A program made the translations under genes and the position numbers. The notes beneath the pieces were generated by a model that had not been told where the DNA came from, searched no databases, and was given only the letters and a program-made list of their open reading frames with translations. DNA of 64,000 bases from Cyanidioschyzon merolae (Eukaryota), in assembly GCA_000091205.1 (NCBI GenBank), contig AP006498.2. One strand, given 5' to 3'. Every line of letters begins with the position of its first letter. Position 1 is the first letter of the stretch. This document shows positions 880 through 61,709 of this stretch, in pieces.

Positions 880-2988
880 AGCAGTTTCGCTTCGACACCG
901 CGCTGCGGTCTCTGTACCCGCTAAGCTCAGCTGCTGTTGCTGCTGCCCGTGTTCACAACCGCCATGAATATCCGCACTGGACACCTCGGGAAAGCGGTTC
1001 GATGGTTGCACGCGCCTATCCAGGCTGGTAGCGACACCACAAGTGGCATCGCCGCAGGTGCTGCTCAAGGGCGCGCAAGCCGCATCCACTGCAGTTGGTG
1101 CAGTGCTCGAGGGCTTCGCAACAAGCGGTTTCAGCGTCTCCATTAACTCTTCACGCACGGATAAATAGGCGTGCAAAAATCCACCGTGCACCATTGAAGG
1201 CACTCGTCGCCCTATGAGATACGAAAAATCGTCACCAGCCTGAGCGCGAAAATCACCAAAGCGCAGGGAACGGATCCCGCGTACGCTCAGCATATACTGC
1301 CACCATCGACGATGTGCAAAACGGCCTCCAGGATCCACACCGAGTTCCTGTGACAGGGCATCATCAAGACCGCGCTCTATATCCGAATCGTCCTTGGCAA
1401 AGGCCTCCACTGATGCCTGGTGCTTCCTAGTCGAATCTATTTCGCGCTTGCTATGTGTTGTGGGCGGTATTTGCGAACAAGTCGCAGCCGAGGTGCCGCT
1501 ACGCCCGGCAGCCAAGGCAGTGGTGCTTACAGCATTCGTCGTACGAGGCATTCGAGTTGTACCGTCGACAGTCGCTTTCGCCGGTGACTCCCGCAACGAC
1601 CCGCGTTGACCGTGTTTGCTGCAGGCGCTCAAGCGCCACGTATCCTGTATTTGCGGACATTCACGTGCATGCAGGTGCTCCTCGAGAGGAACCCGTCGGA
1701 CATTCATATCTGTGCGTAAATTTCTGGTGCTTTTGGTACCGCGAAAGCTCACCACAATCCTATCCGCCAAGTCAATGACGAGCACATGTACATCTGTAAC
1801 GGCGCTGGAGCTATGCCGCACGACTCGTGCTTGCAGGGGGTCCATTTCGCCCACACCATAATGACTGAACATCTCTGCATACATATGCGGGTCATGCCAC
1901 GGTCGATAGGACAGGTACGCCATGTTGAAGATCAAAACATGCGTCTCGAGGACAAGTGAGCGCGAGAGCCAGCTGTCTCCATTTCGCAGTGCTTCCTGCT
2001 CTGTCTGGTAGTAGAGGTTTGCTTTGCGCAGCTCTCGCTCTGCATCCAGTGCGTCCGCTGGCCACGGTGCCGCCTGGCTGGCGCTGTGCGCGGACAACTC
2101 CCACTCGGAGGAAACGCTCCTTTGTGGGGCTCGCTTTTCTTGATATGCAGCTGGGTCCGGAGCCAGCGCAACGATCCAGGGCAGCCAAACACCCAGCACT
2201 GTCGGAGGTAAATGCACATAGAGCAGGAGCACCGACCATGTAAAGAGCATCGCGAAGGCACCACCATTGAATCGTGCAATACCCAGCAACCGCAACGGTA
2301 CGCCATCGAGGGACGCGTTCGCGCCGGGTAATGGTACCAGGCCCACTGCGATGGTATCGTTTGCAATCAGGAATATATAGGATATCGCAGTAAAGACACG
2401 GTAGAAACGAGCACCCATTTGTTTGTGATGACAACAGGTATACGGCAGCTGCTGGAGCACTCGGAAGGTGCGGTAGAGCTCCATGGCAATCCAGCCATCG
2501 AGGAAAATGCGCATGGTAACCACGAGCGCAAACGTAAGCGAGTAGGCCACTTGTTGTTGGTGTCCACGCATAGCAAACTGAACCAACATGCCCGGCCAGG
2601 TGAGTCCTAACGTCGTTCGAGACCAGCCGCAAATGGCTGTCTCCACGGCGGCGATGATCAAACAGAGACCAAATACCACGCGGTTTCGTTCTAGAAACGT
2701 GTGGCGATCCTTAATATCACGATAGAGTCGTAGAATAGCCATGGCGTGTCCATAAAAACCAAATATCCAGAACCATTGCCAGACCAGGTCGGAGACATAG
2801 AGAATGGCGATCGTGGTGCCGCTCGCTTCTCCGATATCGTTCGTGCAATATTGCCTATCATATTCATCGTAAAGAAAATAAATAGACCTTGTAGGAAGCA
2901 GCTGCGCATTTCGAAGGTGCAACGGATCCATCCATACCGATAGAGACGCAAAAAGTAGACGATCGTGAAAGTAAGCTGGAGCACGCAA
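769..2988 (-). CDS. Class-3 lipase gene, main exon(s). Hydrophobic multi-TM N-terminal region followed by the lipase_3 motifs VVSFRGTKS and VHGGFLHAYLSVREEL. The 3' part (about 769-1050, which contains a (CTG)n run and encodes poly-Q/poly-A) is probably intronic.
   Basis: The VxFRGT and VHxGF motifs are spaced as in lipase_3. The GHSLGG motif expected about 25 aa later appears only after an in-frame stop at 769, which implies an intron from about 768 to about 1050. The ORF track start at 2988 is a TTG, not an ATG. Confidence 0.6.
849..886. repeat. (CTG)n microsatellite of about 12 units, lying inside the predicted lipase intron.
   Basis: Direct read: gctgctgctg... at 851-886. Confidence 0.9.
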
Positions 2989-3353
2989 AAGCAGTACACG
3001 ACGACGCGGTCAACGAGGTTGAGTGCCGGGAGTGCCGCTTCGAAACGGCGTGCAAACAGACTCATTGCTAGCGTGTAGGTGACGGAGAGCACGATTGCAC
3101 TGCATAAGTTGAGAGTTTGCCAAGTTACCTGCTTCGAGGATAGCGTCTCAAGGAGGAACTTGGCTTCCTTTGGATCGCTTCGAATCTGTGGTGGAGCAAA
3201 GAAACTCGACAAACGACTGCGGTGACGTGCACTGCTTCGACGTGTGCGCGTGCCTCGTTCCTGTCCATTGATGAGTTCGCTGCTGCCTCTTAGCGTGCTG
3301 TCTCCAAATGTCTCCGACTCGAACGAGGAGACGGAGGTACCACGATCAGCCAT
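2691..3353 (-). CDS. Probable 5' exon of the same transmembrane lipase gene. It starts at the first ATG (MADRGTSVSS...) and contains further TM-like segments. It joins the downstream frame through an unresolved short intron or frameshift near 2850-2950.
   Basis: ORF 2691..3368 is in a different frame from 769..2988 but is contiguous and hydrophobic. The 769..2988 ORF lacks an ATG start. Confidence 0.35.
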   Translation of the reverse strand: MADRGTSVSSFESETFGDSTLRGSSELINGQERGTRTRRSSARHRSRLSSFFAPPQIRSDPKEAKFLLETLSSKQVTWQTLNLCSAIVLSVTYTLAMSLFARRFEAALPALNLVDRVVVYCFCVLQLTFTIVYFLRLYRYGWIRCTFEMRSCFLQGLFIFFTMNMIGNIARTISEKRAAPRSPFSMSPTWSGNGSGYLVFMDTPWLFYDSIVILRIATRF

Positions 3354-4865: not shown

Positions 4866-6584
4866 ATGGCCCATAAACAGAAAGCTGGGTGTATTTCCGT
4901 GCTGAAGCGCGGTGTGGAAGCCGAGTTCGCAAAGCTCTTCCACGACGGCGACCTGGAAGCAGCCCGAACCGAGTTGAACGAGTCCGTTCGCGACCTCATC
5001 GTCTGGGAGCGTAACACCGTCTGGCGAGATATGTTGCTCCAGGAGCGTCGGCTTCGAGACACGCACGCCAAGCGAAGCGGCACCCGCGACTCGCCGTTTC
5101 GGGCGTTTCGAGTGGTTCCATTTCTCGTGGCGGTGGTGCTCTTTCTGGGCGTCCTCTTTGCACCGGCATCGCAGTTTATGTTTCTGCAGCGGGCGCTGGA
5201 AGAACGGGAAAATCAGGGTCACCCGATATCGGCAGCTGCCGCAGCTGCACGGAACGCAGCCGCCCAACGCTGCCTCGCGCTGGTCACGTTCGCGTCGGTA
5301 CTCTGGGCCACAGAGGCAGTGCCGCTATTCGTCACCTCGTTGGCAATGCCACTGCTTGCAGTCATTCTACGCGTATTCCTCGACGAGAAAGGTGAGCGGA
5401 CACTCGGACCGACCGAGGCTGCTCACAAGTCCATCACATCCATGAGCAGTCCCGTGCTCCTGCTCATTCTTGGCGGTTACAGTATTTCGGGAGCGCTCAG
5501 CAAGCATGCCATCGACAAGGCGGTAGCGATTGCAGTTTTGCGCCATGCGCGACGACCTCCAGAACTGCTGCTATTACTGATGCTTTTAGCGGTTTTCTTA
5601 TCGATGCTGGTATCGAATGTGGCGGCACCGGTATTGACGGTCGGTATTGTGACACCACTGCTACGCAGCTTGCCACCAGGGACTCCCTTTATCAAGTGTG
5701 CGCTGCTCGGTGTCGCCGCAGCTTGTAACGTAGGCGGCATGACCTCGCCGATCGCGTCTCCGCAGAATGCGATCGCGTTGGATGCCCTGCGCGGTGCCGC
5801 GTCCATCTCTTTTCGCCAATGGGTAGCGATAGCGCTGCCGCTTGCTCTGGTTACCGTATTTGTGATGCATGCGTACTTAATCGTTCGTTTTGGACGCGGC
5901 CCGATGCAAGCGTTTCCACTGATTCCTATGCATAGTCCGCTGAAATGGAAGGATACTGGGATGGCGCACTTGGTTGTCATTCTGACGGTTCTGGTCACTG
6001 TGGCGCTCTGGAGCAGCAAAACTGTTTCGGATCGATTCGGTGGGGACGGCATTGTTGCCCTCGTACCTGTGGTGGTGTTCATGGGCACTGGTCTTTTGAG
6101 CAAGGAGGATTTCAATGCGCTACCTTTTAATGTTATCTATTTGGTGTCCGGCGGCGTCGTGATGGGCGCTGCCGTTCGATCCAGCCGCTTGCTGGAGCTC
6201 GTGGCCGCATCCGTGCATTCCGCAGTGGTTGGCGCCGGCCTCTACAAGACCTATCTGACCTTTATGCTGATGACACTTCTTGTGGCGTGCATTATGAGCC
6301 ACACGGTTTCCAGTATCATTCTGAGTCCCGTTTTAGCCGAGCTTGGCGCAGCGCTTGGTCATCCACGGCTCATGGTGCTGGGAGGTGCACTGGCGTGTTC
6401 CTGTGCAATGGCACTGCCCGTGTCAAGCTTCCCGAACATGGCCGTGATCAGCGTCGAAGATGAGCTCGGGAATCCTTATTTAAGTGCTCGCGATTTCGTA
6501 TGGGTAGGCTTTCCTCTGACGTTGCTCGCGGGCGCAGCACTGGCGAGTCTCGGCTATGTGCTTTCGTTTTACGCTGGCCTGTGA
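4866..6584 (+). CDS. Anion permease of the ArsB/NhaD-DASS (SLC13-like) superfamily, 572 aa.
   Basis: ATG at 4866. About 12 hydrophobic segments. The family-typical motif [24 protein letters not shown] and an SPxxSPQN hairpin motif ([16 protein letters not shown]) are present. Confidence 0.6.
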
Positions 6585-6619
6585 GCGCCACGACCAGCTC
6601 GCTATCCTGCATATGCTGC

Positions 6620-7367
6620 GTTGCAGGATCCGCCTGATCTTTTTCTGCACGATTCGTCACGGGCGATATCGAATACGGACCAGGACGATCCGCTTTCAAG
6701 CGCCGATAGTGTACACACATGGCTACGCCATCGGCTTCGATCATCCCAGTGAATACCTTTTGCTTGCTGGCTTTGAGACGCTTGAAGTCGAAGATATTCA
6801 TCCAGTGCGTCTCCCCGTTTTCACCGGTGAACTCCTCCGTGCTGACATCGAACTCCGGGCTGATCTCTCTCATGATCCCGTAAAGGACGCCGGAGTCGAT
6901 TGTCACAAAATGTGACTTGATGTTGCACAACGGAACGACGTTGAAGCGCTTACCCATTAGGAAAGCATCCCGTCTCTCCGACTTTTCATTTTTTCCCCGA
7001 CTCAGCTGCTCTTCGGCGTTGCGTTCGAGTTCTCGGTTCCGAAACAAGAAACAGCTTAGGATGACGGGATAACATCTTTTTTTCATTTCTGATACATTTT
7101 CTACGGGATTGACTGGCCCAAAACTGCACGGTGCTCCTGTATAGCCGCACGGATTACAGAAGCTTCATTTGTGCTGCTGTGTGACGTCTTCTTGTCGACG
7201 AATTCGATCTCCTGTCCACTCTGGCGATCGTTCGTGATACAATTGATGATGCCCCACATCCCTTTGCGCGAGATGCCCGGGTAGAGCGCAAAGATAGATC
7301 GTACCACGAAGCGTTCGAGGTTCACGGTCAGATGGTTCTTCAGGTTCGTCAGGTACTTCATGGGCAC
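6620..7367 (-). pseudogene. Truncated Fanzor-like ORF fragments of copy 1 (ORF A 7101..7367 and ORF B 6620..7086). The RuvC domains are missing.
   Basis: The proteins are about 93% identical to the copy 2 ORFs 26371..26637 and 25244..26356. Similarity ends before the GADPEN RuvC-I block. Confidence 0.7.
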
Positions 7368-8768
7368 TTAGAACTAAATATTCGAGTCATGCCTGTATCG
7401 AGTACCGTTGAAGCGGTACTTGGGGCATTTTTCGTGGAGGGCATATACTCGCGCATTTCGCTTCTACGCTTCCCCCGTGCCAAACATCAAGTGACGAATA
7501 AAGGTCTTGTCGAAAAATTCTTCCGGAACCTCTTCTGTTTCCATGCCCGTCACGTCGCGATACATATCCCTCGCGATATGCATCAGTCCTACGGCAGCGT
7601 CTCATACACTCATAGAGTGCGCCTCGAAACGGGTTCTGATGGCCTCTTGGGGCTTTTCCCTGTGCGGTTCTTTGATGTGTTTCAGAAGACAGGCTTTCAC
7701 CAGCATCTCGTAATATGATCGTCTTTCTCGCATCCATTGACGTCGGGCATCCCGCTGTCGCTTCTTCGACCTGTCTCGTTCCGCTTTGCTCGGCTCTGGT
7801 TTTCATTTTTCTCCGGCAGCCGGCGACGCCGGGCCTCCAGCATCCTCCACTTCCATTTCCATTACTTTCCATTGCTATGATAAGAATGCACTTTGGAAGC
7901 GTCTACTGTAAACTACGAAAAATCACTTGACTAGAGTACTGTAAGGGCTGAAACACGAATGAATCGCAAGACTATACTTTGCTATGACGTCAACGCAAAT
8001 ACGACTTGAACCTAAAGTACAACAACAAGTTAGCGAATGATCAGGATCGCAATTCCCTTCAAAAGCGAGATACGCGTCGAGTCTGATGCCTTCCAGACAC
8101 AGACGTGAGCGTAACGACAGCATTAAATGGAACAAAGAATAGAAACTCACTACTAACTAGCAATCCGATAGGAATTTCGTTTCCCACTACGATCGACGTT
8201 AAAAGGGGGAAAAGCTTGCCGTATCTTCGAAGGTTGATCTTCGAGGTGGAAAGTCTCGCGAGCCGGACGAATCCCCAGTGCTTGTGCTTCGTGCTCCACC
8301 CAGAGTCAGGTGATTTGGCGAGATCTGAGCAACTAATCCACAACGCAGTTTATTCTCGAACTAGGGGCAGTTGATGTGCCTCTGGGCGTCGCCCTGGTCG
8401 CAGTGGACTCTTAGTATATTGCTGCGCGCTGCCGCAGACAGACGTACTGTCTGCGCAGCTTGCGGACTCCCAGAATGATGATGTACGCCGACTCCGTGTC
8501 GATTGCAACACATCTCGAGCCGACGCCCTCAGTGGTACGGAAAAACCGTTCTGTCTCCGTGCAGCACCCGCTTCAGCGGTATAAGCGCTACGGCGAGTGC
8601 TCACGGCAGGCAGTCGTCGCAGGATAGAACATACGAAACGACCAGCGTATCCCAGAGGAATTGTAAGTAATGGAACCTGGAAGTAGGGTGCAGCATGGTG
8701 GACGATCACATGAATCTTAAAGCCCATCCCGGATTTCGGACTCCTTGGTCCATGGAAACGTTTTGTCA
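6620..8768 (-). mobile_element. Fanzor/TnpB-like nuclease element, copy 1. It is 3'-truncated and keeps only the 5' module, the leader and the N-terminal half of the ORF. It abuts the stop codon of the transporter gene.
   Basis: Region 6620-8093 is about 97% identical to 25880-27350 of copy 2. Region 8093-8768 is homologous to the 5' module of the other copies (same GAGATCTGAGCAAC and ATGGAAC.TGGA blocks). Homology stops about 35 bp after the transporter stop at 6584. The 5' motif block ATAGCGCGGTCGATAC... is deleted. Confidence 0.7.
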
Positions 8769-11197: not shown

Positions 11198-11685
11198 AGC
11201 CAACACCGGCTCGCCTGGCTTTTGCGAGTGTTTCTGGAGCGTATGCCGCAGCACGAACTGCGCTGTCGTCTGAGCACTGAAGCCGCAAAGCACGAAGGCT
11301 AGTCGTGCGCGTCTCGGCCTGGGCGCTGGGTTCGTTTGGCGCAAAGCTCTAAGGATGCTTTGCGCAAGACCAAGCGAGTTTTCGTTATATGAACGCGGGT
11401 CGTCAGCTGTGCACACCAGTTACACCCGTGCTTCGTACCCAGTGACATAAAGCTATCGCTGGCGCCGCGCGGAGCGAAGAAAATTACCAGACGCGATGGC
11501 TCGTTGGTTGCAAACCAAGGCGCCCCGCACGCAGTTCCGGTGCTCTTACCAGCAGGCTATGTGGCACCCGCGCAGTTCGTGTGAACGCCGCTCGGGCAGG
11601 TTGCGCTGGGCGCCGAGCGCTGGCCACACCATGGGACGCAAGGCAGCTGCTGCGGTAGCGAGGCATCACCCACCGGCTATGGAGC

Positions 11686-11925
11686 AACCGTACATGATCC
11701 CGCAGAATACAGATTGTTTGGCGCGCTTTTCTTGCTCACTTCGGCGCACGCTGATCAAATCAGGAACCGTACATGATCCCGCAGAATACAGATCTTTTGG
11801 CGCGCTTTTTTTCGCTCACTTCGGCGCACACTGATCAAATCAGGAACCGTAAATGATCCCGCAGAATACAGATCTTTTGGCGCGCTTTTTTTCGCTCACT
11901 TCGGCGCACGCTGATCCACTTTGCT
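11686..11925. repeat. Tandem minisatellite of about 79 bp x3 (CCGTACATGATCCCGCAGAATACAGAT...CGCACGCTGATCAAATCAGGAA).
   Basis: Three near-identical units are read directly, in the intergenic space between the ABCD and CAF-1 genes. Confidence 0.9.
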
Positions 11926-20281: not shown

Positions 20282-22564
20282 TGGCGCAGAACACCGGGCT
20301 GGTGCCGGGGCTGGTGCGGTGCGCCCCAGTGCGCGATGACCGCCCCCAGCAGGGCATTAGCCCAATAAACCCAGGTTCACGTCGCTGCATACGAGACATG
20401 TACTGAATCGAAAAGCCTCCCTAGACTTTTCCCGTAGACCAGTAGCGTCTGCTGCGAGCACGTTGCAGGTAACGGTGTCTGAGCGGGTCAGGTCTGGAGA
20501 GATAACGAGCTTCTGATTGGCAAACGAACACGCGCCATGCCGCGCGCAAAGCCCTGGGCATCTAATCGAGACGAGGGTGTTTTCCAGAATATGTCCAATA
20601 AGATCCCACTTTACTTTCCATGGACAGAACGTAGCTCCTGACGAGGGATTCTCGTGCCTGGCAGCGGCCGACGTCTCCTTTCAATCGACAGAGCATTCGT
20701 ACAGACCAGGAGTGCGTGCAGTTGCACGATGAGGATCGGCATCAGCGATAGCGTTCCACCAGACACCATCCATACTTGCGCTTGGAGAAACTGGTCGATG
20801 CGTATGATGCGCTGAGCGCCGTGCATGCTGTGAGTATGTAGAGCGCCAGTGCGCGCGCAGTATGGAGGCGGAACCGCCTCGCCGTGCCACCGAATGCATC
20901 GGCTCGGAGATCCCGATATCAGTGGGTTCAGAGTGCAACCATGCGCACTGGACTTGATGGCAGTCGTGCGATACCCGTGTCAGCATAAGGAGGAACATTG
21001 AACTGCTCGAGATATTGCTGCTTTTCGTTTTTTCTTCAATTTTTTAGGATGCATCGCCTCGGCATTCGGGGTGCAGCCTTAAGGCGTTGTGCATTCAAAC
21101 GTAGGTTGAGGAATCTTGGTCGTTTTCTCGGAATGACGCATTGGAGTCAATGCCGATGGACATGATTACGTTACCGAAATCAACTTGATTCGCGACGCTC
21201 TCGACCGATCGTCCCTAAAATAACCGAGAACACTATCCAGTACACAGGAGCGAGCCTCCGCGATTCTCGATTCCTGATGCATAGCTAGTTCAAACGACCC
21301 GTACTTCAAGTTTTCGATATTTCTGTTTCATGGGAATTTGTGAGCACAGAGCTTTGCGTCGGCGGAACGGCTGGGGGAAAATATTCGACGTCTTTGCTTC
21401 ACGACGCGTTCACGAGCTCACGCCGAACGTTCACTGGACGCGTCACCTCAAATAATCGATGCCGTTCGAGAGACAAATCATGCTCGGTTTGCGGCCGGCG
21501 AAGATACTGCATTCGACAGCGGCATGATACCGCTCTCTAAGTATGTCACTTGTGCTTCCCTGTGTCTCTTCTTTTGTTGATGGAATAGGGTTTTGGACTC
21601 GGACTTGGGTAGTTGCAGCGATCGCTCCTAATGGAGCGTGCGTCGCCACGCTGGACAAGACGCGCGTGACTGCATCGGAATTTCTAGACTTTTGCAGATG
21701 CCTGGATTTTGCTTCCGATACATATTCAATCATGGACAGCATCGCATTCCACGAATCCTGCATCGAATGGAACAGCGTGCGCTTGCGCGTCCAGCGGTCA
21801 GCGTCTTCGCCGACGGGATCGCGGAGAAGATGCCCTTAATCCCCGGGTACGGGTACGGGTGCGGAAGCGGAGCAAGTCTTCAACTGGAGCTGTGTGTATC
21901 CGTCTAGTCTGCGTTCCAGGCGATGAAGCAAGCGTTCAAGCGCCACAGAATGGCGCGCGCTGAGATACAGGTATGATGGACAAACGGGAGCACCTGCGTA
22001 TATTTCATGGACACCGCTGCAATGAGCGCACCAAAGCTCTCTACAAAGAACATGAAAACGGCAAGCAAAATGCAGATCGCTAGTTCCGCTCATGGAAGAA
22101 CTTCGTTTATGACTGTTGAAAGCAGTAAAGTCGGAACTCTGTTGCCGCCATCATCATCCGTCGAGTGCCGACGCTGCAGCTGGAGGGACGACAGTGATCC
22201 GCGACTTTCAAGCCAAATACAAGCGGAAGCGAACGGGAACAGTTGCAGCAACATCCCGTCAAGGCTGCTGCTCATGGCTCTGGGACGAGATCCGACCATC
22301 ATGGGTCTGAAAACCCGTGTGACCGAAGTGCACCCGTCCCATGTTTCGAACATGGCTGCCGTGCAACACTGCTGTTTGGGAGCGCAGTGTCTGCTTTTTT
22401 TGGTTAATGGCAGCAAGCGCACATTCGCGATAAACCATGCTGGGCTCGTTCATCAGACATCATACAGAATATTCGCCACTATCCGTTTGCGGAGGATTCG
22501 CCAGGATCGCAGAACTGCGGTTCATTGATGCCGACCGAGTCGTCTCTATACAAATCGCGGCATT

Positions 22565-22850
22565 CTAAAATGCTCTTTGTCGAGTATAGCTCCATTTCAG
22601 GATTTCATTCGTATGCTGGATCATGACGGCATCCTAGCATGCTCTTTGTCGAGTATAGCTCCATTTCAGGATTTCATTCGTATGCTGGATCATGGCGGCA
22701 TTCTAGCATGCTCTTTGCCGAGTATAGCTCCGTTTCAAGGTTACAGCAGTTTGCTGGATCATGACGGCATTCTAGCATGCTCTTTGCCGAGTACAGCTCC
22801 GTTTCAGGATTTCATTAGTCTGCTGGATCATCGTCCGGATATATCATTCG
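22565..22850. repeat. Minisatellite of about 69 bp x4 (GCATGCTCTTTGTCGAGTATAGCTCCATTTCAGGATTTCATTCGTATGCTGGATCATGACGGCAT...).
   Basis: The GCATGCTCTTTG anchor recurs at 22637, 22707 and 22776. ORF 22577..22885 is merely the translation of this repeat. Confidence 0.85.
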
Positions 22851-24070
22851 GTCGTCAGCGTATTCCGCGGCTCCGTTCCGACTAGAGCAAGTGTGTGTCG
22901 CTGCGCTAGCGCAGCTTCTGCGCCGCACTCGTTGGCCCCCTTTTTCCTCATGCGCTTCCGAAAATCACTCATTGAGACGCTCAGAGAGTTTCAGTAGGAT
23001 CTTTGCGCATTCGGGCTCAAAATGCCTCACTACTAGCCACTGCTCGCTTGCGATTCCCTCTACCGTCCGATGCTGGTGGCAGCGCCTTGCACCACGGGAG
23101 TACCCGCAGTCCGTCGTCGTTTGCGCCAACGGTGCACGTTTCATACTGAGACCCACTTTCGACGCGCTCGGAGAAGCAGGACGACGATGTCTGCGTTCAA
23201 GCCGAGCAACCACAGCTCTGCGCTAATGCCGAGAGCCGGGCCGGACGCCGCAGCATGCGGAACGACACCATGCTGCGTCGCGCAGCGGCAGCACGAGTGT
23301 AAGAGCCAGCAGACACCGGTCAGGGACCTCGAGATATGCCTCCAAAGTGGCTACCAGGACCCGCTTCGGGAAATATGACTCCGTATGCGGCCGGAGCTGC
23401 AGCATGGGAGAACCGTAGCCAAATGACCGAACGATCGCTCGCTGTTTACAGGGGAAATTTGTTCGGAAGCCAACGAAGCAAACACGAGGTTTCAAATGAA
23501 AGGCGAACAAGCAATTGAAAAAGAAAACAGGTTACCGACTCCTTCCGCTGCCTTAGTCAACATGCCTGCACTTTGGAGCAGAAAACTGCAGATGATTCGG
23601 TGAAGCAGCGAGCGGCAACGTCGTCTCTACTCGCCCCGCGTATTCGACGTCGGCAGTGGCTACGGTTCGGATCCGTTCGGATTCAAACCGGCATCCATCA
23701 GCCGTTTACCTCCACGCTGCCGCATAGCGGACGACAAGCGCACTTTCGAGCATGCAGCTATTCACTGGCGCGCTGCGCTCACGGGCATCGGCGTGAAACG
23801 CATGCGGTGGCATCCATCGGCCACGAAGACGCGTACCTAAACCTCGCAGCAACTGGGATATGGGGCCGACAAGACGTTCCCTCACATGACTCCTTCGACT
23901 CGCAATGCAGAAACTTCACGCTGGGCTGGAGCAGGCCTCCAAAGCATGCCTCACATGGCGCTTGCAGAGCGGGATGCATACGCTGCTGTTTCCGCTACCT
24001 GGCTCGCTTAACGCATTCACTTGGCCGCAACATCCCTGAAAGCCGAATGCGGCGCCATGACGTGCATGCG

Positions 24071-24838: not shown

Positions 24839-24949
24839 GGCGTCCAGTATGTCAGCTTCGAGAAGCGCAATGGCGCTGAATGAGTGCTTGCATCTGGAGC
24901 GTCGGGAACGCGGCGAGAACGTTCCGCGAACACACAGGGTAAATGGGTA

Positions 24950-27900
24950 CCGACGTGCAGACGTCTCCCAGTGTTTTTTGACCGGCCATCTACTACTGCC
25001 TCCAACTTATTCTCATCTAGTTTGACTTTGAGAGGTTGTCCAACAAAGTAGGCTCTCGACAGCTCGGGAGGTCTTTTTTCTCCATCACCACACATCTCCT
25101 GATATGGATAGCAGCATGAAAGTCACGATTCACAAACTCGATACATTTCTTGCCGCCGATGGTGGTTGTACTCAGTAATGGAAGGAGTCCTCGAACTTTC
25201 GCCCTCCATTCCATTTGCTCTGCAGTCAAGGCTCCGTACGTTTTTATATAACCTCAGGATTCCGCTGACACTTTTGCATCTCGACCCTCTGAAGTGTGCA
25301 CCGAAGCTCTTGGTGTATAAACGATGCTCGGAACTCATCTATGGGTACTGTGACAAATCGCCTCGCACACTCCGGGTACGTTCTTGGCGTTGCAGCTGGT
25401 GTGCTCTCTTTTTTCGACCCCCAGCGCCCTGCTCCGTATGCTACGACCAGCCTCTGACTTTCATCTCCTTTGAGGGCGCTCAACTCATTGAAAAAGTTCG
25501 CGAATGCACGCTGCTTCCCACAGTACAAGTTCAGACGCGGACGAGCCCGCCTGGGCATTGTATATTCTTTCCACAGCGCATTGCCATGAGCAACGCGAGT
25601 TTTGATGAATTCTCGAAAAGCTCGAAAGTCCGCTCCACGACTGGTAACATCGCGAATAGCTTCCAGGTGCTGTTTCGTGCCTGGATTCCATTTCTCAATT
25701 CTCTTCCTCGCACTCGTGAATCCCGATTCTCGATAGTATCTCGCCCTCGAGAACCTCAAAAGACGCATGTCTCTCTGGAAAAAGTTACCGTTGATACCAT
25801 ATTCCGCACGCTTGGGTACAGCGTTGGTTATTGTAGTCGCGTTCTCCGGGTCCGCGCCAACGACAAACTCGTTCTCCTGTACCTCCTGCGTCGCGGAATC
25901 CGCCTGATCGTTTTCTGCACGATTCGTCACAGGCGATATCGGAAACGGACCAGGAGGATCCGCTTTCAAGCGCCGATAGTGTACACACATGGCTACGCCA
26001 TCGGCTTCGATCATCCCAGTGAATACCTTTTGCTTGCTGGCTTTGAGACGCTTGAAGTCGAAGATATTCATCCAGTGCGTCTCCCGGTTTTCACCGGTGA
26101 ACTCCTCCCTGCTGACATCGAACTCCGGGCTGATCTCTCTCATGATCCCGTAAAGGACGCCGGAGTCGATTGCCACAAAATGTGACTTGATGTTGCACAA
26201 CGGAACGACGTTGAAGCGCTTACCCATTAGGAAAGCCTCCCGTCTCTCCGTCTCTTCATTTTTTCCCCGACTCAGCTGCTCTTCGGCGTTGCGTTCGAGT
26301 TCTCGGTTCCGAAACAAGAAACAGCTTAGGATGACGGGATAACATCTTTTTTTCATTTCTGATACATTTTCTACGGGATTGACTGGCCCAAAACTGCACG
26401 GTGCTCCTGTATAGCCGCACGGATTACAGAAGCTTCATTTGTGCTGCTGTGTGACGTCTTCTTGTCGACGAATTCGATCTCCTGTCCACTCTGGCGATCG
26501 TTCGTGGTACCATTGATGATGGCCCACATCCCTTTGCGCGAGATGCCCGGGTAGAGCGCAAAGATAGAGCGTACCACGAAGCGTTCGCGGTTCACGGTCA
26601 GATGGCTCTTCAGGTTCTTCAGGTACTTCATGGGCACTTAGAACTAAATATTCGAGTCATGCCTGTATCGAGTACCGTTGAAGCGGTACTTGGGGCATTT
26701 TTCGTGGAGGGCATGTACTCGCGCATTGCGCCTCTACGCTTTCCCCGTGCCAAACATCAAGCGACGAATAAAGGTCTTGTCGAAAAATTCTTCCGGAACC
26801 TCTTCTGTTTCCATGCCCGTCACGTCGCGATACATATCCCTCGCGAGATGCATCAGTCCTACGGCAGCGTCTCATACACTCATAGAGTGCGCCTCGAAAC
26901 GGGTTCTGATGGCCTCTTGGGGCTTTTCCCTGTGCGGTTCCTTGATGTGTTTCAGAAGACAGGCTTTCACCAGCATCTCGTAATATGATCGTCTTTCTCG
27001 CATCCATTGACGTCGGGCATCCCGCTGTCGCTTCTTCGACCTGTCTCGTTCCGCTTTGCTCGGCTCTGTTTTTCATTTTTCTCCGGCAGCCGGCGACGCC
27101 GGGCCTCCAGCATCCTCCACTTCCATTTCCATTACTTTCCAGTGCTATGATAAGAATGCACTTTGGAAGCGTCTACTGTAAACTACGAAAAATCACTTGA
27201 CTAGAGTACTGTAAGGGCTGAAACACGAATGAATCGCAAGACTATACTTTGCTATGACGTCAACGCAAATACGACTTGAACCTAAGGTACAACAACAAGT
27301 CAGCGAATGATCAGGATCGCAATTCCCTTCAAAAGCGAGATACGCGTCGAGTCTGATGCCTGCCAGATATGGAGATGCGGGTATCGACCGCGCTATATAG
27401 AAAAATAGGGAGAGATACTAGCCCCTAACCAGCAACTAGATAACAGTTTGCTCCCGCTCCACGGAAAGCATTGAAAGAGGGAAACGTTCTCCGTATTTAC
27501 GAAAGTTTATCGCCAAAGCGGAAGCGCCCTAGAGACGGACGAGTCAACGGTGATTGTACTTTGTAGGCATCTATAGTGCCGGGTGCTGAAGAGAGATCTG
27601 AGCAGAACGTCTGCAACGAAGATTACGCTGAGAAGAGCAGCGAACAGGATGCATCTAGACATCGCCCGAGACCCGATCGTCTCCGAGCATACCGCTTCGC
27701 GCTGCCGCAGGCAGTAGGCAGCAGGCCTTTCTGCACGGCTTTCCAGCTCCCAGAATGATCATGAATCCCGATGCCGTGTCGGGTGAACGATACCTCCAGC
27801 TGACGTCCTCAGTCATATGGCAATGCCTCGCAGTCTCTGTGCAGCATTCGAATCATCGGTATAGGCACTTTTGCTGACCATCAAGGCAACCTCGGTGCAC

Positions 27901-28045
27901 AATAGAACGTACGAAATAACCAGTACATCCGATAAAAAGTACAAGTCATGGAACTTGAAGGTAGCGTGCACCATGATGGATACGTTCACCGAATGCCAAT
28001 ATCTAATCACGGAATCAACGATGAATGGTCAATGTACGTTTTCTA
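24950..28045 (-). mobile_element. Fanzor/TnpB-like nuclease element, copy 2. It is full length and is the least damaged copy.
   Basis: The 3' end GTCTGCACGTCGG lies at about 24950. The three ORF segments are 25017..25229, 25244..26356 and 26371..26631. The 5' motif CCAGATATGGAGATGCGGGTATCGACCGCGCTAT lies at 27362-27395. The 5' module (GAGATCTGAGCAGAAC...ATGGAACTTGAAG) runs from 27590 to 28045. Confidence 0.75.
25017..26631 (-). pseudogene. Fanzor-like RuvC nuclease gene, in three segments. RuvC-I is [16 protein letters not shown] (Asp near 25852). The IDEFRAS block with Cys/His residues lies near 25336. RuvC-III is [13 protein letters not shown] (Asp near 25124). There is a single frameshift between 25229 and 25244, and a 10-bp gap relative to copy 3 between ORF A and ORF B.
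   Basis: The motif order and spacing are as in TnpB/Fanzor. The frameshift maps to GAGGTTATATAAAAAC, where the alternative frame continues as ...[19 protein letters not shown], matching copy 4 (...AIKKYGPLTEEQMETRAKL). The first ATG of ORF A is at 26631. Confidence 0.7.
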
Positions 28046-31499: not shown

Positions 31500-31884
31500 A
31501 CTCAATGGGCCTCTATGCAAAACATTCTAGACCTGCATGTGGTAACGCAATGAGGCGCGAAGCGCTGTGCGGAACAACGTTACCGGCGAGCACGCGGATA
31601 GCGGCACCCGCGGCGGCGATGCAATTTCGGGATCGCCTGCGAATTATTACACGAACAGGGTCGTTGAGCATCTTGCTCATCATCGAAGCGTTCCTCGTGG
31701 CTGCCCGTTCACAAAGTCTTGGATGCTGCTCGTAGACAGCGTCGCCGTCCATCACTCTAAAGCGGTCGAGGAGTTCGTGGCTGAGACTGGCGTTGAGCTG
31801 CTCCTCGTGCCAGCCGATTCCCGCTGGCGCAAACCGGTCGAAGGCAGCTTCTCTGTTGTCGAGCGTTATTCTTACATTCGTTGA
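31500..31884 (+). pseudogene. Degenerate DDE(D) transposase C-terminal remnant, Tc1/mariner- or IS630-like.
   Basis: WMLLVDSVAVHHSKAVEEFVAETGVELLLVPADSRWRKPVEGSF follows the pattern h-DNA-x-pH-x-K-x-V-x-E-x-L-x-6-L-x-PpySPdLnPiE of mariner DDE_3 domains. Confidence 0.35.
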
Positions 31885-32164
31885 TCAATGGGCGAGCCAT
31901 TCACATCTATGACACGCTGCATCGACATGTCGTTCTATACTGCCTTTATCGGCCCGGAGCTGCTCTTTCACGCTTCTGCTCGTGCGCAGCGGAACGGAAG
32001 AGTGTGTTTCGGTCCATGGGCGTGCTCGCTACGGTTAAGGTGACGGAACGGGACTCGATGGCTTCTGGACACATACTCTGGATATGTGAGATTCAGAGCC
32101 TCCGCCAATTCAGTCGGTCTGCATTCCGAGGAAAGAAAGGATATAGAGTATAACGACCCCGTCC

Positions 32165-33460
32165 ATGCCATTTCGCGAAGTGAACGACAAGGCGATGAAG
32201 GATCTGGCCTCTATGGACAAGCACGAATCATTCGAGCAACTTTGCTCTGAGCATTTGTGGAGCTCGTACAGGCTTGCTCCATACCTGGCAAAAATGCGGG
32301 CAAGTTTAGATGGATTCCAGAGGACCGCTGTGTATCCATCTGCACGGATTTGGTGAAACTCGTGAAACCGGGACCTGAATCGAACGACGAGACTCATTTT
32401 CAACCATTCAATGTGGATGAAGAGAAAGGCAACCTATTGGGTGTGGATCCCGTGTCCGAACACATCATGGCCGTTGCCGTACCCGTAAACCAACAGTGCA
32501 GGGGCAAAGCCCTGAACGGAAACCAGACGACGATACGTAACTTGTTAAGGGCCCGGTATGATCGCGAGTCGGGCGTGATCGATACCAGGAGACCTACCGA
32601 CAAACGGAATGACAGTGCCAAAACCCCGAAGTCGACGCTCTGAGCACTGCATCGTGCAGAGCGGAATCCCCTGTTCGCCTCATTCAGAGTGAATATGAGC
32701 GTCGAAAACAGCTCATGCGGACGATGCTTGGTAAGAATACCCGAGAGCACGCTGTGGGTTGCCAACGATATCGGCTATGCGGGGGCGAGATGCATGTGTT
32801 CGAGAACTTGATCAATGTGCTTGGAAATGAAATGAACCGCAAGATGCGTCATTCGGTGGCAGCCCAAAGCGCTCAACGTACTGTGGCCCGCCAACGTAGC
32901 GCCTGTGCTCCCTCTACGAGCCCGCACAGCGCGTGCAGGATTCGATGCTGCACGATTCGCACCGATGCGTTCGGCACGACATCGGCACTATGGAGGCAAA
33001 TGTGCACACCGTGGTTAATAGACGTGGAGACGGGGACGAAACAGAGCCTGGATGCACGATGTGATGTACGGGAAGCTGACCGCAGGTCAGAGAGCGAAGC
33101 AATCGAAGGTGCGAGGCTTGCGATGCGGTGATTCCACCATCCCGACTACGTTCGAGAACGCGCTGCACCGAGACTTGAACGCCTCGATGACGACCCGGAA
33201 ATAGCATGCGCTTCGCGAGCGTCCAGCAGCTTTGTTTCGAGCGTTGCTTCGAGCGAATCGTTTTGTGCGCTGTATGGGTACTGTGTTGAAACGCACCAAA
33301 CGCACGATGAAGCGATTCGGCGGCCAGGGGAATCGACGTTGGATTCTGGCCTTGAGCACGGTACTGATATGGGACTGTTCGGCTATCCAGCAAGGCTGCC
33401 GCACCGACTTTATCAGTCCCGAAGGATTCAACTCAGCTAAGGATGAACGAAGATAGTGTT
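32165..33460 (+). pseudogene. Highly degenerate fifth Fanzor-like copy. RuvC-I is LLGVDPVSEHIMAVAVPVN, followed by TTIRNLLRARYDRESGV, then YRLCGGEMHVFENLINVLGNEMNRK and FGGQGNRRW.
   Basis: These blocks align to copy 2 as [56 protein letters not shown] and VVAYGAGRW. The fragments are spread over several frames, and no RuvC-III is recognisable. Confidence 0.45.
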
Positions 33461-35679: not shown

Positions 35680-36310
35680 AAGACGCGTTTCCACGGATCA
35701 GGGGATCCCAGATTGCCGGATGGACGGGTATTGGCATTCGGGAATGCGTCCAGGATGCTGCAGCCTATCTCCAAGTTCCATTGCTTGTACTTCCTCTCGG
35801 AAATACTGGTTGTTCTGTGGGTTCTATCGTGAACAGAGTGCCTGCGTCGCTGCTCCCGCCGTAGCGTCTATATCGCTGGAGTGGATGCAGCACGGAGATA
35901 GAGCTGTGCTTTGTCGTACCACTGAGGGTATCTGTTTGAGGAACGCTTCACCTGAAACGGTGTCGGGATACATAGTGAGTTTGGGAGCCAGAAATCTGTC
36001 CAGACAAGCCTAGTGCCTGCGACAGCTCGAATTGATATTCTGGGCGTCCACTGCGACCCGGGCGACGCCCAGATGCAGCGGAACTGCCCCGAGTCTCAGA
36101 GTCAACTGCGTTGCGTACGAGTTGCTCAGATCTCGCTAGAGCACCGGGCACGGAGGAGAGCATGGAGCACGAGCCTGGCAGACTCGCGCGGCTTGCAGGA
36201 TCTGCTACCTATACGGTAAACTGTCGACAATATGGAAACATTTTCCCGCTTTTAACGTTTATCTCAGAGGACGAAAGAAATCGTTGTATCGTTGCTAGTT
36301 GGTGAATCGT
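35680..36310 (+). repeat. Left arm of a long inverted repeat of about 650 bp. It is about 98% identical to the reverse complement of 38850..39537, and equals the 5' module of the element.
   Basis: Sampled about 200-nt stretches have only 3-4 mismatches. The ORF track shows mirror-image ORF pairs (36013..36219+ versus 38982..39188-, and others). Confidence 0.85.
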
Positions 36311-36791
36311 TTTTGCTCTTTGTTTGCATAGCGCGGTCGATACGCGCACCTCCATATCTGGTAGTTACGAGATGCGACGCGCATCTCGCCGTTGAAGGGA
36401 AACGCTATCAGGATAATTAGCAAGGTGTTCGACCCTACAAGTTGTACTTGCGTTAAAGCCATCGCAAAGTGTATTCCCTAAATTCAGTTGTGTTCCACTC
36501 TCAAAATAGTATATTCATATGCGTTTTCGCAGCTTACAACAGAAACCTTCGAAGTGCCTTTTATTTCAAAAATAAAAAAGTTATGGAACTGGAATTTGAG
36601 GATCCCGGAGGGCCGGTGTCGCCGACTGCCGAAGAAAAATGAGAAGCAGAGCCGAGCAAACAGGAACTGGAAAAGACGAACAAGCAGAACGGGGAGGCCC
36701 GACGTCCGGAGTTGTACGAAAGACGACAGTACCACGAGATTGCGGAGTAAGCCGGATTTCCTAAACATATCATGGACCGTACAAGGAAAAG

Positions 36792-38700
36792 TTGCAAGAT
36801 GCCATCAGAACCCGTGTCGAGTCCTTCTCTAAGAGTGTTCGTAACGCTTCTTTAGTGCTGATGCATATGGCGAGGGAGATGTATTACGACGTTACAAACG
36901 TCAAAACAGTCGAGGTTCCGCAGGAATTTTTAGACAATACCTTCATTCATCACCTGAAGGTTGGCGCAGGGGAAGCATCGTGGGGAAATGCGCGAGTACA
37001 TGCCCTCCAGGAAAGTTACACTGAATACCGCTTCAAGGTTACTCAATACAGGGGTGACTCGCGTATCTACGAGTACGGGGCGATGAAGTACCCCACGAAC
37101 CCGAAGAACCATATGTTCATGGACCTCGAACGCTTCATGATACGCTCCGTCTTCGCACTCTGCCCGGGTCTCTTGCGCAAAGCGATATGGAACATTATCA
37201 ATAGCATCACGGACGATCGCCAGCATGAACAAGAGATGAAATTCGGTAACAAGAAGAAATCACACAGTAGAAAGAATGAAGACTCTGTGATCCGTGCGGC
37301 TCTACAGGAGCACTGTGCGGTACTGGGGCTGCCGAATCCAGCAGAAAAGGTATCAGAGTTAAAGAGAGTTAAAGAAAGATTTTATATCTTCTTCCTGCTG
37401 TATTTCGTGTTTCCGAACCGAGAGCTCGAACTCAAGGCGGATATGGAGCAAGGTGTGGAAGAGCATGACGAGTCGTAGAAACGGAAGGCTGCGCTTCTTG
37501 GCAAGCGCTTCAATGTCATTCCATTATGCGACGTCAAATCACATTTTGTGATCATCGACTGCAGAGTCCTTTACAGCATCATGAAGGAGATCCGTCTGGA
37601 GTTCAATCTAAGCAACAGGGGGTTTACGGGTGAAAATTGGGAGACGTGCTGCAAGAAGATCCTCGATTTCAAACGCCTCAAAACGAGCAAGAATAAGGTA
37701 CTCACAGGCATCATCGAAAGCGATGGAGTAGCGAAGTGTGTACACTGTCGGCGGTTGAAGGTTGATCGTACTGGTCCGTCTTCCTTGTCGCCCACGGCGG
37801 AGCATGAACATGAGAAACTGGAGGATCTTGCGACGCAGGGGGTGCATGAGAGCGACTTTGTCGTTGGCGCGGACCCTAAGAATACGAATCTCGTAACCGT
37901 CGCAGCACCCAAGCGTGCGGAGGATGTTAACGACGGCAACTTACGTCATAACGACGTGCGTCTTTTAAAGTTCTCGAAAGCGAGATATTACCTAGAATCG
38001 GGAAAAATGAATGCAAGGAAAATAATTGAGACATGGAATGCAGGAGTGAAAGAGTACCTGGAAGCTGTGATCCAGGTGACGAGCCGCGGTGCGGAGTTTC
38101 AAGCTTTTCGGGAATTCATGAAACCTCAAACTGCTCATCAACAGGAGCGGTGGAAAGCGTATATCAAGCTCTGGTGGGCACATCAGCGAATGAACCTGGA
38201 CGGAGGCAAGCAGCTTGCATTCACTAACTACATCAATCAGTTAAGCACCCTCTAGGAAGACAAGGGTCAAATGCTCGTAAGAGCGTACGGAGCAGGGCGC
38301 TGGATAACCAAAACGGGAGCATACCTGCTCCGTTGACGCAGGGAGTACAAGGAGTGAGCATACCGTTCTGTCACAATACCGATAGATAAGTTCCGAACGT
38401 CCTATATACACCATGAACTGGGGGTGTACACGTCATTTGGTCGAGATGCAAAAGTGCCACCGGAGCGCTGGGGATATAGACAAGTACGGAGCGCTGACGG
38501 AAGAGCAAAGGGAAGGGACACGGAGGGCACAAATTTGAGGTCTACTTGCACTGGTGTATATAACCGGCTGCGGCAAGAAACGGATGGATTTTGTGAATCG
38601 TGACTTTAATTCAGTCGTCAATAAAGAGAGCTGTGCGTCGATGGATACAAGACCCGCGGAGCTGGCGCGACCCAACTTTTTGGGGCAACCGCTCAGGGTT
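36792..38700 (+). pseudogene. Fanzor-like nuclease gene of copy 3. It has a frameshift between 37478 and 37548 and further shifts after 38255. RuvC-I is FVVGADPKNTNLVTVAAP. The RuvC-III equivalent is mutated (RDFNSVVNK instead of RDFHAAINI).
   Basis: It aligns block-for-block with copy 2. The N-terminal region (QDAIRTRVESFSKSVRNASLVLMHMAREMYYD...) is open here, whereas copies 1 and 2 carry four nonsense codons in the same region. Confidence 0.65.
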
Positions 38701-38849
38701 AAATTATATGAGAGAAACTGAAGCCAGGAACAGGCGGCCGGTCGAGAAAGGCTGTTAGACGTCTGCACGTCGGTTTATACACACGCACGGTATCGGCGTG
38801 ATGGACGGAACGGCACGTCTAACAACGGGAGAGCGAAAGCAAGTGATGT

Positions 38850-39537
38850 GCAGCTATAGCGATGATCCACATGGTTGAAAAGGAACAGAGACGCACGATC
38901 CACTAGCAACGATACAACGATTTCTTTCGTCCTCTAAGATAAACGTTAAAAGCGGGAAAATGTTTCCATATTGTCGACAGTTTACCGTATAGGTGGCAGA
39001 TCTTGCAAGCCGCGCGAGTCTGCCAGGCTCGTGCTCCATGCTCTCCTCCGTGCCCGGTGCTCTAGCGAGATCTGAGCAACTCGTACGCAACGCAGTTGAC
39101 TCTGAGACTCGGGGCAGTTCCGCTGCATCTGGGCGTCGCCCGGGTCGCAGTGGACGCCCAGAATATCAATTCGAGCTGTCGCAGGCACTAGGCTTGTCTG
39201 TACAGCTTTCTGGCTCCCAAACTCACTATGTATCCCGACACCGTTTCAGGTGAAGCGTTCCTCGAACAGACACCCTCAGTGGTACGACAAAGCACAGCTC
39301 TATCTCCGTGCTGCATCCACTCCAGCGATATAGACGCTACGGCGGGAGCAGCGACGCAGGCACTCTGCTCACGATAGAACCCACAGAACAACCAGTATTT
39401 CCGAGAGAAAGTACAAGCAATGGAACTTGGAGATAGGCTGCAGCATCCTGGACGCATTCCCGAATGCCAATACCCGTCCATCCGGCAATCTGGGATCCCC
39501 TGATCCATGGAAACGCGTTTCGGAAAAGCGAAAATCT
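38850..39537 (-). repeat. Right arm of the inverted repeat. It is a second, inverted copy of the 5' module placed immediately after the copy 3 tail. It may be the right TIR of a TIR-type transposon carrying the nuclease gene.
   Basis: See the left arm. The outer end CCATGGAAACGCGTTTCGG mirrors the left terminus. Confidence 0.8.
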
Positions 39538-60195: not shown

Positions 60196-60329
60196 CGCGC
60201 CATCCGCAGGGCAGCGTACGGAGCGGCAGGCACTGGTGCGATCGCTGTCCAATGATGGGCAGTTTCTCGAAGACGAAACGTTCACGTGGACCATGGATCC
60301 CAGATTGTGGGGTAGATATTCGCGCTGGG

Positions 60330-60660
60330 GAAAGCATCCACGAATCTGTACTCTGCCTTCAAGTTCGGTTCCTTACTCTTGCTCTAGGATATTCTGGTGG
60401 TTTTGTACGTAATATCGAGCGTCGAGTGCCTGCTCTGAGTATCCACGAAACTGTACTCTGCCTTCAAGTTCGGTTACTTACTCTTGCTCTAGGATATTCT
60501 GGTGGTTTTGTACGTAATATCGAGCGTCGAGTGCCTGCTCTGAGCATCCACGAATCTGTACTCTGCCTTCAAGTTCGATTACTTACTCTTGCTCTAGGAT
60601 ATTCTGGTGGTTTCGTACGTAATATCGAGCGTCGAGTGCCTGCTCTGAGCATCCGCCGGA
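60330..60660. repeat. Tandem repeat of about 108 bp x3, derived from the 5' part of the element module (…CAAGTTCGGTTCCTTACTCTTGCTCTAGGATATTCTGGTGGTTTTGTACGTAATATCGAGCGTCGAGTGCCTGC…).
   Basis: The unit anchors ATCCACGAA(T/A)CTGTACTCTGCC recur at 60335, 60440 and 60545. The unit is homologous to the single-copy stretch CAAGTTCCATTGCTTGTACTTCCTCTCGG...GAACAGAGTGCCTGC of the copy 3 left arm. ORF 60252..60800, with three repeated peptides, is an artefact. Confidence 0.85.
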
Positions 60661-61709
60661 GCGGTTATATATCGCTGGTGCAGATGCATCATAGAGACGG
60701 AAATGCTCTGCCGTACCACTGGGGGTGTCGGCTCGAGGTATCTTTAAATCAGCACGGAATCGGAGTACGTAATCATTCGGGGAGTCAGCAAGCTGCGTAG
60801 ACATACCTACTGCCTGAGGCAGCACGGCGCGGTATACGAAGATACTACGGCAAGCAGGGCGACGCCGAGACGCAGCATACCCGCTCCTGGTCCCAGAATG
60901 AACTGCGTTGTGGACGAGTTGCTCAGCTCTTGCTCCAGCGCTAGGCATTGGGCGGGCCTGACGTACGAGCTTGAGAGACATGTCCGGCTCGCGGTGCCTA
61001 CCGCCGAAAAGGTAAACTTTCGAAACTATGCGAACCTTCTCCCCCTTTTTCAAAGTTTATCGTGGAGGGCGAGACAAATCGGTATCTCGTTGCTAGTCTG
61101 TGGATAGTTTCTATACTATTTTCTAGATAGCGCTGTCGATACGCGCACCTCCATATCTGGCAGGCATGATGTACGATGCTCATGTCGCTGTTGGAAGGAA
61201 ACGCGATCTTGATATTTCGCTTGTTGCTCTAACGGACAAGCTGTATGTGCGCTGATGTCGTAGCAAAGTCTAGCTTTTCAGTTCCATTGTGTTTCGACCC
61301 CCAAGTCTGTGTACTCAAATGCTTTTTCGCGGTTTACAGCAGAATTGTTCGAACAGCGTTCTTTTTCAAAAACATAAAAAAGGAAAGTTCTGGAAATCGA
61401 AGTGGAGGATCCTGGAGACGCAGTATCGCCGGCTGCCAGAAAAAACAAAAAACAGTGCCGAGCAAAGACGAACAAGATAAGACCATGAAGCAAAAAGGGG
61501 TGGGGTGGTCCGACGTCAGGATCTGCGCGAACGACGACAGAACGACGAGACGTTCGTGAAAGCGTGTCTTCTTGGCCATACCAAGGATCCGTACAAGCAA
61601 AAGTTGCAAGAGGCCACAAGAAACCGTGTCGAGTCGCAATCGATGAGTGTTATATAGGCGTCGTCAGGAGAAATGCATTTAGTGAAGGACATAAATCGCG
61701 ATGTGACGG

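Follow-up and report, generated by a model that had tools for sequence, protein, structure and literature searches.

Ectopic (interlocus) gene conversion between dispersed repeats has been described for Ty elements of yeast, for human Alu and L1, and for duplicated genes. The closest described counterpart of the repeat analysed here is CMe-1A, a Fanzor1-carrying element of Cyanidioschyzon merolae that is present in ~150 copies, ~80% identical to their consensus (Bao & Jurka 2013, Mobile DNA 4:12, PMC3627910). CMe-1A is ~3 kb long and lacks TIRs, its TSDs being undetermined, and its 5′ 635 bp are 95% identical to a separate element, TE-N2_CMe, of which ~70 solo copies exist in C. merolae (Bao & Jurka 2013, PMC3627910); both names are those of Repbase. 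The motif given for Fanzor1 is D-X(125-275)-[TS][TS]-X-X-[C4 zinc finger]-X(5-50)-RD (Bao & Jurka 2013, PMC3627910).

Self-comparison of a C. merolae window of 64,000 nt (the whole stretch of DNA that was analysed) revealed four copies of a ~3-kb repeat, which are listed below with a solo 5′ module, the two parts of copy 1 and the host gene beside it:

6585-8760, minus strand: copy 1, a CMe-1A pseudogene, 3′-truncated
8122-8760, minus strand: 5′ non-coding module of copy 1 (TE-N2_CMe-like, ~640 nt)
6585-8121, minus strand: body of copy 1, a Fanzor1 pseudogene (located by tblastn of P0001 and P0049, alignments and the sequence)
4866-6584, plus strand: host gene for a Pho91-type phosphate transporter, 572 aa, identical to C. 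merolae 10D XP_005537731.1
24949-~28040, minus strand: copy 2, a CMe-1A pseudogene of full length (~3.1 kb)
35683-38775, plus strand: copy 3, a CMe-1A pseudogene that belongs to another lineage and shares ~72% identity with copies 1 and 2
38880-39518, minus strand: solo 5′ module, inverted relative to copy 3 and 97-98% identical to the module of copy 3
~60279-63728, plus strand: copy 4, a CMe-1A pseudogene with at least four frameshifts

The element begins with a ~640-nt non-coding module that is found solo as well; the body behind it contains one Fanzor1 ORF, and there is a conserved 3′ terminal block, GGCCGGTC ... GACGTCTGCACGTCGGT. In the body of copy 1 the ancestral ATG was probably the one at 7862. 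The module of copy 4 carries a tandem expansion of 3x105 nt (60333-60654), and TIRs are absent from copies 2 and 4. The solo module lies just beyond copy 3 and forms an inverted repeat of the first ~620 nt of that copy. In L008, an intact environmental copy, no module adjoins the body, and in L006 the module is inverted. RNAalifold on six module copies gave no support for a conserved RNA fold of the 5′ module (covariation term +0.3), and Rfam had no match in the whole window, in which no omega-RNA was identified. A DIRS-like element, which we had suspected from the 639-nt inverted repeat around copy 3, was dropped after the homologue search and in view of the CMe-1A description. Judged by its host, its length of ~3 kb, its solo-occurring 5′ module, the lack of TIRs and its single Fanzor1 ORF, the repeat is CMe-1A, an assignment that matches it to the published description rather than by direct alignment to the Repbase consensus. 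The window copies, ~70-80% alike and mostly decayed, show no difference from CMe-1A at the level of the family.

As far as profile homology and a predicted fold can tell, the repeat encodes a member of the Fanzor1 (TnpB-like, RuvC) family of RNA-guided nucleases. The reconstructed consensus protein matched 61 database proteins, and the intact relatives among them are 593-752 aa long and 30-61% identical. When this consensus was searched against the PDB with phmmer, nothing was returned; only a profile, built from 9 intact homologues, succeeded among the PDB sequences, matching SpuFz1 of Spizellomyces punctatus (PDB 8GKH, 8gkh_P) with E = 5.2e-11 at profile positions 258-588. The fold was tested on an intact relative, P0049, and not on the pseudogenes themselves. 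Its AF2 model (pLDDT 70.4, pTM 0.61), in which residues ~70-225 have a pLDDT of 73-94 apart from one dip to 60 at 171-180, was matched by Foldseek over its full length to the PDB structures of SpuFz, PpFz and GtFz (E 1e-13 to 3e-10; 684-807 alignment columns, TM 0.47-0.67); the next match after the Fanzor1 structures was Cas12f, at E ~0.02. Pfam was uninformative in this respect: it recognized no family in the individual ORF fragments and gave only sub-threshold Cas12f1-like_TNB matches for the intact homologues, and the precomputed database label PF26935/DUF8286 says nothing further.

The likeness to Fanzor1 comprises profile homology over the C-terminal ~330 positions, the full-length fold match of P0049 and the motifs DPG ... 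DEFRTS ... NRDxNAAxNI. Intact relatives carry DPG ... DEFRT[ST] ... NRD at compatible spacing, with fewer than four Cys in the segment between. The C. merolae lineage differs from SpuFz1, PpFz and GtFz in that sequence identity to them is only 13-15%, and from the solved Fanzor1 proteins in a zinc-finger region that is poor in Cys and His. A further difference is that copies 1 and 2 are pseudogenes. Copy 2 retains the D and RD of the motif and reads RAS for RTS before the zinc finger, the first T/S being lost, whereas copy 1 lacks the nuclease half, being truncated upstream of the RuvC-I motif GADPG, that is, before the first D.

Copies 1 and 2 lie in the same orientation on one chromosome, 19.27 kb apart, and their unique flanks are unrelated. 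An earlier note on this DNA had already described the unrelated flanks and the 3′ truncation of copy 1; the latter falls at 6585, where it abuts the stop codon (6582-6584) of the Pho91 gene. The host ORFs in the window are long and intron-free, which, like the G+C content of ~55%, fits C. merolae, a red alga. The earlier note had also put the identity of the two copies at about 97%. This figure does not describe the copies as wholes, for which BLAST gave 87.8%, nor their 5′ modules (~65%) or the last 97 nt before the truncation (83.5%), and it holds only for an internal tract of 1,405 nt with 98.3% identity. The distribution of differences between copies 1 and 2 is as follows:

5′ module plus the first 30 nt of the body: 213/607 differences, 35% divergence
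Tract, copy 1 8091 to 6687 (= copy 2 25957-27361): 24/1405 differences, no indel, 1.7% divergence
Copy 1 6686 to the truncation point: 16/97 differences, 16.5% divergence

Sliding comparison of the two copies gave 55-71% identity in the 5′ module, 95-100% from ~8090 to ~6690 of copy 1, and 62-84% before the truncation. The tract, given here at its maximal extent (minus strand, copy 2 offset by +19270), differs in divergence from its two flanks within the body with p = 5e-10 and 3e-10 (Fisher tests). The low-identity 3′ flank that supports one boundary is only 97 nt long, and the 5′ boundary is just 30 nt away from the module/body junction, on the body side, 10 positions differing in these first 30 nt of the body; exchange of a separately mobile 5′ module could mimic this 5′ boundary. 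Elsewhere in the window, other pairs of copies are 60-82% identical per 100-nt interval, and database proteins reach at most 76% identity to any of the window copies. The near-identity of copies 1 and 2 is, on this comparison of 4 of the ~150 genomic CMe-1A copies, all 4 from the window, exceptional for the family. A database search for intact members of the lineage of copies 1 and 2 found no protein more than 70% identical to the conceptual translation of copy 2. Local homogenisation was seen in two cases, namely this tract and the 98% identical inverted 5′ modules that flank copy 3.

The tract holds a series of lesions in the Fanzor1 reading frame, which together with the two ORFs they leave behind are:

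7805-7803 (copy 2 27075-27073, copy 3 36640-36642): fifth in-frame TGA, downstream of the probable ancestral ATG at 7862
7604-7602 (copy 2 26872-26874), minus strand: shared in-frame TGA; Arg codon in copy 3
7466-7464 (copy 2 26734-26736), minus strand: shared in-frame TAG
7376-7374 (within copy 2 26638-26646), minus strand: shared in-frame TAG, replacing an invariant Tyr after an invariant Ile
7370-7368 (within copy 2 26638-26646), minus strand: shared in-frame TAA; Tyr in copy 3
7117-7119, minus strand: 1-nt deletion in a G-run (GGGG to GGG), the same in copy 2
7083/7084, minus strand: in-frame 9-nt deletion, the same in copy 2
7083-7119 (copy 2 26353-26389), minus strand: ORF A/ORF B junction
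7101-7367, minus strand: ORF A, 88 aa, a stretch from within the N-terminal half of Fanzor1
6448-7086, minus strand: ORF B of copy 1, 212 aa

Four of these stops had been noticed before (R to TGA, SW to TAG-R, Y to TAG and Y to TAA relative to copy 3), as had the break between ORF A and ORF B and the ATGs at 7361 and 26631. Our reading agrees: the stops occupy the same codons, those of copy 2 sitting at the positions of copy 1 +19270, the junction is identical in both copies, and the coordinates of the ATGs are right. That all the lesions are shared is expected and no coincidence, because the tract that holds them is 98.3% identical without indels. The comparison with copy 3 has to be narrowed. 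Copy 3 is open only between 36792 and 37475 and is itself a pseudogene: it has TAG codons at 37476-37478 and 38253-38255, has lost 1 nt near 36777 and shifts frame again later on. Nor does it carry a 10-bp duplication at the junction, as had been proposed; there is no insertion, the longer form of the junction being found also in copy 4 and in the intact environmental copy L008. Since these have the same length as copy 3, the apparent duplication reflects deletions (1 + 9 nt) in copies 1 and 2. The frame of ORF B upstream of its ATG reads GPVNPVENVSE, which is ancestral protein sequence, so that the single-base deletion is the sole frame-breaking lesion at the junction. ORF A is no independent gene, and searching for exact matches to its products brought up no record. 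In copy 1, ORF B derives from Fanzor1 as far as 6585, beyond which it runs antisense through the 3′ end of Pho91. Copy 2 has additional frameshifts near 25247 and 25092.

A metagenome scan returned only orthologues of the two loci and one relative of 62% identity. The orthologues, 98.6-99.2% identical, represent the copy 1 locus (L004 and L007) and the copy 2 locus (L001-L003). Both L004 and L007 cross the tract of copy 1 into unique flank and repeat its mosaic with every lesion, and L004 spans both tract boundaries. L001-L003 begin inside the tract, at positions corresponding to copy 2 26052-26207 and thus past the lesions on their 3′ side, and have the alleles specific to copy 2 at the 3′ tract boundary; what they confirm is only the copy 2 locus and that boundary. 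One further sequence, L005, joins a module of the copy 2 type to the flank of copy 1. It is probably a chimeric assembly, the alternative being real variation in the extent of the tract. In two of the environmental orthologues A7 has become A8 directly after the ATG of ORF B, which places this ATG out of frame.

Ectopic gene conversion is recognised by a near-identical internal tract between diverged ends and unrelated flanks, and this is the combination found here: a high-identity segment, homologous sides of lower identity (33-35% divergence 5′, 16.5% 3′) and unrelated unique flanks. We therefore weighed most heavily, with a probability of about 0.8, the reading that copies 1 and 2 are old, diverged pseudogenes between which ~1.4 kb was moved by ectopic gene conversion. 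The two copies would have inserted and decayed independently. One lineage would first have gained the five nonsense codons and both deletions (1 nt and 9 nt), all in the part of the gene for the Fanzor1 N-terminal half; ectopic, non-reciprocal homologous recombination between the direct-orientation copies would then have copied ~1.4 kb of one into the other (copy 1 6687-8091 = copy 2 25957-27361), all the lesions travelling with the converted DNA, with the 5′ modules, and what lies beyond the tract on its 3′ side, staying original and far more diverged. From the pattern of identity we infer that both loci already held a copy, that the transfer had one direction and that it was conversion rather than another form of recombination. 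Homologous recombination is known to be efficient in C. merolae (PMC3764038). Since essential-looking genes lie between copies 1 and 2, which are in direct orientation and 19 kb apart, only non-crossover outcomes would be expected to survive. As in the conversion cases of Ty, Alu and L1, there is an internal tract of high identity with diverged homologous sides and unaffected flanks, in repeats of the same orientation and chromosome; unlike them, the C. merolae loci are known from their sequence alone. The CMe-1A paper does not mention a 1.4-kb near-identical tract between two diverged copies. The idea that a dead element had been copied, raised in the earlier note, would in this way hold in substance, though probably as an internal ~1.4-kb transfer between pre-existing copies and not as duplication of an element.

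Both tracts would have drifted neutrally after the conversion. Indeed, substitutions accumulated since are 18 nonsynonymous and 3 synonymous (9/8/4 by codon position), and within ORF A and ORF B alone 12 nonsynonymous and 1 synonymous, so constraint on the tracts over this time is absent. A check of the dN/dS type between subfamilies gave nearly flat codon-position counts and has little power, as the four window copies diverged mostly neutrally.

Lack of constraint bears on a quite different reading, also put forward in the earlier note, in which copies 1 and 2 represent a short but functional subfamily whose coding sequence begins with the ATG of MKYL(T/K)NLK, a programmed frameshift or a tiny intron linking ORF A to ORF B. 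Upstream, the frame of ORF B stays open as far as 7164 and so shares 7164-7101 with the end of ORF A, the deletion site U UUG GGC formally fits X XXY YYZ, and frame-joining GT..AG pairs of 29-62 nt exist. However, intact homologues of 30-40% identity conserve the ~180 N-terminal residues that precede MKY, and P0049, itself an intact homologue, aligns full length to solved Fanzor1 structures with its N-terminal region confidently modelled. The Met of MKY is not conserved, being I, K or T in other members, and the position is preceded by an invariant I-Y (NIY in most members), where copies 1 and 2 read NI*F*VPMKY. At the junction, L006, the intact L008 and copies 3 and 4 are all colinear, and the bases that look extra there encode conserved residues; the GT..AG pairs are chance candidates whose removal would delete residues conserved in relatives, and very few introns exist in C. 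merolae. As for a -1 frameshift, a slippery pattern with Y = G departs from the canonical sites, in functional relatives the run is GGGG and there is a single frame, and the site has five stops upstream and no constraint downstream. Copy 1, moreover, lacks the RuvC/zinc-finger half and copy 2 has its two further frameshifts, the substitutions run against a coding role over the whole tract (18:3) and within ORF A and ORF B (12 to 1), and the A7/A8 polymorphism of the orthologues falls right after the ATG of ORF B. With neither the MKYL start nor an intron or frameshift at the junction upheld, we regard a functional short subfamily as scarcely credible.

Other explanations accept that the sequences are dead and differ over how they came to be alike. 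Plain copying of a dead element, by trans-mobilisation or segmental duplication, with ends replaced or diverged later or with a module acquired separately at each locus, would account for lesions common to both copies between unrelated flanks. It gains from the separate mobility of the 5′ module (the solo copy at 38880-39518; ~70 solo copies, PMC3627910), from the missing and inverted modules of L008 and L006, and from the 5′ switch in identity lying only 30 nt from the module/body junction. But copying of the body should leave uniform similarity, while the body shows 10 differences in its first 30 nt, 16 in its last 97 nt and 1.7% between; plain copying needs at least two extra recombination events, as against one conversion, and we consider it rather unlikely. 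The mosaic might also owe its existence to an assembly that wrote one repeat copy into two places of the reference. Assemblers can go wrong over 1.4-kb repeats that are 98% identical, L001-L003 break inside the tract and L005 looks chimeric, but the two tracts differ at 24 sites, the independent L004 and L007 span the tract of copy 1 with its unique flank (L004 with both boundaries), and L001-L003 hold copy-2-specific alleles at the 3′ boundary, which leaves an artefact next to no chance. It is very improbable, finally, that the local homogenisation is more than incidental, in that breaks made by an active Fanzor1 with its omega-RNA, supplied by an intact copy at another place in the genome, were repaired from ectopic copies, the nuclease driving the concerted evolution of its dead relatives; an internal tract that spares both ends of the element is not what TnpB-style homing predicts.

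The element family was already known in C. merolae, and the case is an ordinary one that matters little beyond annotation. The regions 6585-8760 and 24949-28040 should be entered as pseudogenes of CMe-1A (Fanzor1), with no gene models that invoke introns or alternative starts, and ORF B of copy 1, which runs partly antisense through Pho91, should receive no gene call. The dating of transposable elements calls for caution here: the 98% identity of the tract makes copies 1 and 2 look young, and their ends show them to be old. Read as gene conversion, the two copies would be a small and clear-cut illustration of the interlocus process in C. merolae.

Homology between copy 1, a pseudogene of the Fanzor1-encoding transposon CMe-1A, and the other copies reaches its limit at position 6585, which adjoins the TGA stop codon (6582-6584) of Pho91, a host phosphate transporter gene convergent with copy 1. 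Since this homology extends up to the base next to the stop, the transposon relic must house the 3′ UTR and terminator of Pho91. In copy 1, the mechanically called 'ORF B' runs on antisense into Pho91. The same flank is found in the metagenome contig L005, where positions 1-2096 pass from a 5′ non-coding module of the copy 2 type, through the tract shared by copies 1 and 2, into the copy 1 flank with Pho91. Either L005 is a chimera that was assembled across the 1.4-kb repeat, or it stems from a strain whose conversion tract runs on through the module.

An inverted solo module (38880-39518) sits ~100 nt past the 3′ end of copy 3, so that copy 3 looks as if it were flanked by 639-nt terminal inverted repeats. 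It is 97-98% identical to the 5′ module of copy 3 (35683-36321), whereas modules from different copies are a mere 55-75% alike. The pair is a second instance of either recent duplication or local homogenisation. In the 5′ module of copy 4 (window 60333-60654) a 105-nt unit is present three times in tandem, at 96% identity, and the copy 3 module holds a 65% match to this unit (35745-35856). Tandem repeats were also seen outside the transposon copies, at window 22554-22898 and 11648-11886, with periods of 69 nt and ~80 nt, respectively.

Two environmental copies bear on the order of module and body:

L008, 1507-1687: module match
L008, 2675-5347: body
L006, 134-293: module match, inverted relative to the body
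L006, 424-2928: body

In L008 the module does not adjoin the body, and the match ~1 kb upstream is weak. Given this detachment, and the inversion in L006, the 'module + body' layout of CMe-1A is variable rather than fixed. L008 carries the longest ORF among the environmental copies (752 aa), which starts at a GTG according to the gene caller. Just 3′ of the probable start codon lies an A-run whose length differs among copies (L008 ~2935-3000; copy 1, window 7800-7862), and in L008 its length places the 752-aa ORF in another frame than the upstream ATG. The 'intact' L008 copy may be N-terminally damaged too, or the A-run length may be a sequencing error.

At the other end of the element, homology of copies 2 (~24949) and 3 (~38775) stops right after a conserved terminal block, which is closed by a small hairpin, GACGTCTGCACGTCGGT. 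Copy 4 (63650-63728), L008 (5347-5416) and L006 (~2885-2930) have in common ~80-90 nt of extra 3′ sequence. The 3′ end may exist in two variants, or a candidate omega-RNA region may lie there.

For C. merolae, the listing of Bao & Jurka (PMC3627910) holds a single Fanzor1 family. Within the window we found two further features:

31567-31884, + strand: ORF with a DDE_3 transposase match (Pfam, E = 1.4e-6, just above cut-off)
32257-33294, + strand: fifth Fanzor1 relic, highly diverged (~30% identity to residues 483-702 of P0049, an intact Fanzor1 homologue)

The relic, which contains a RuvC-I-like motif, 'GVDPVSEH', lies directly 3′ of the ORF with the DDE_3 match and on the same strand. Together, 31567-33294 (+) looks like a decayed Mariner/IS630-type element with Fanzor1 as cargo, separate from CMe-1A.
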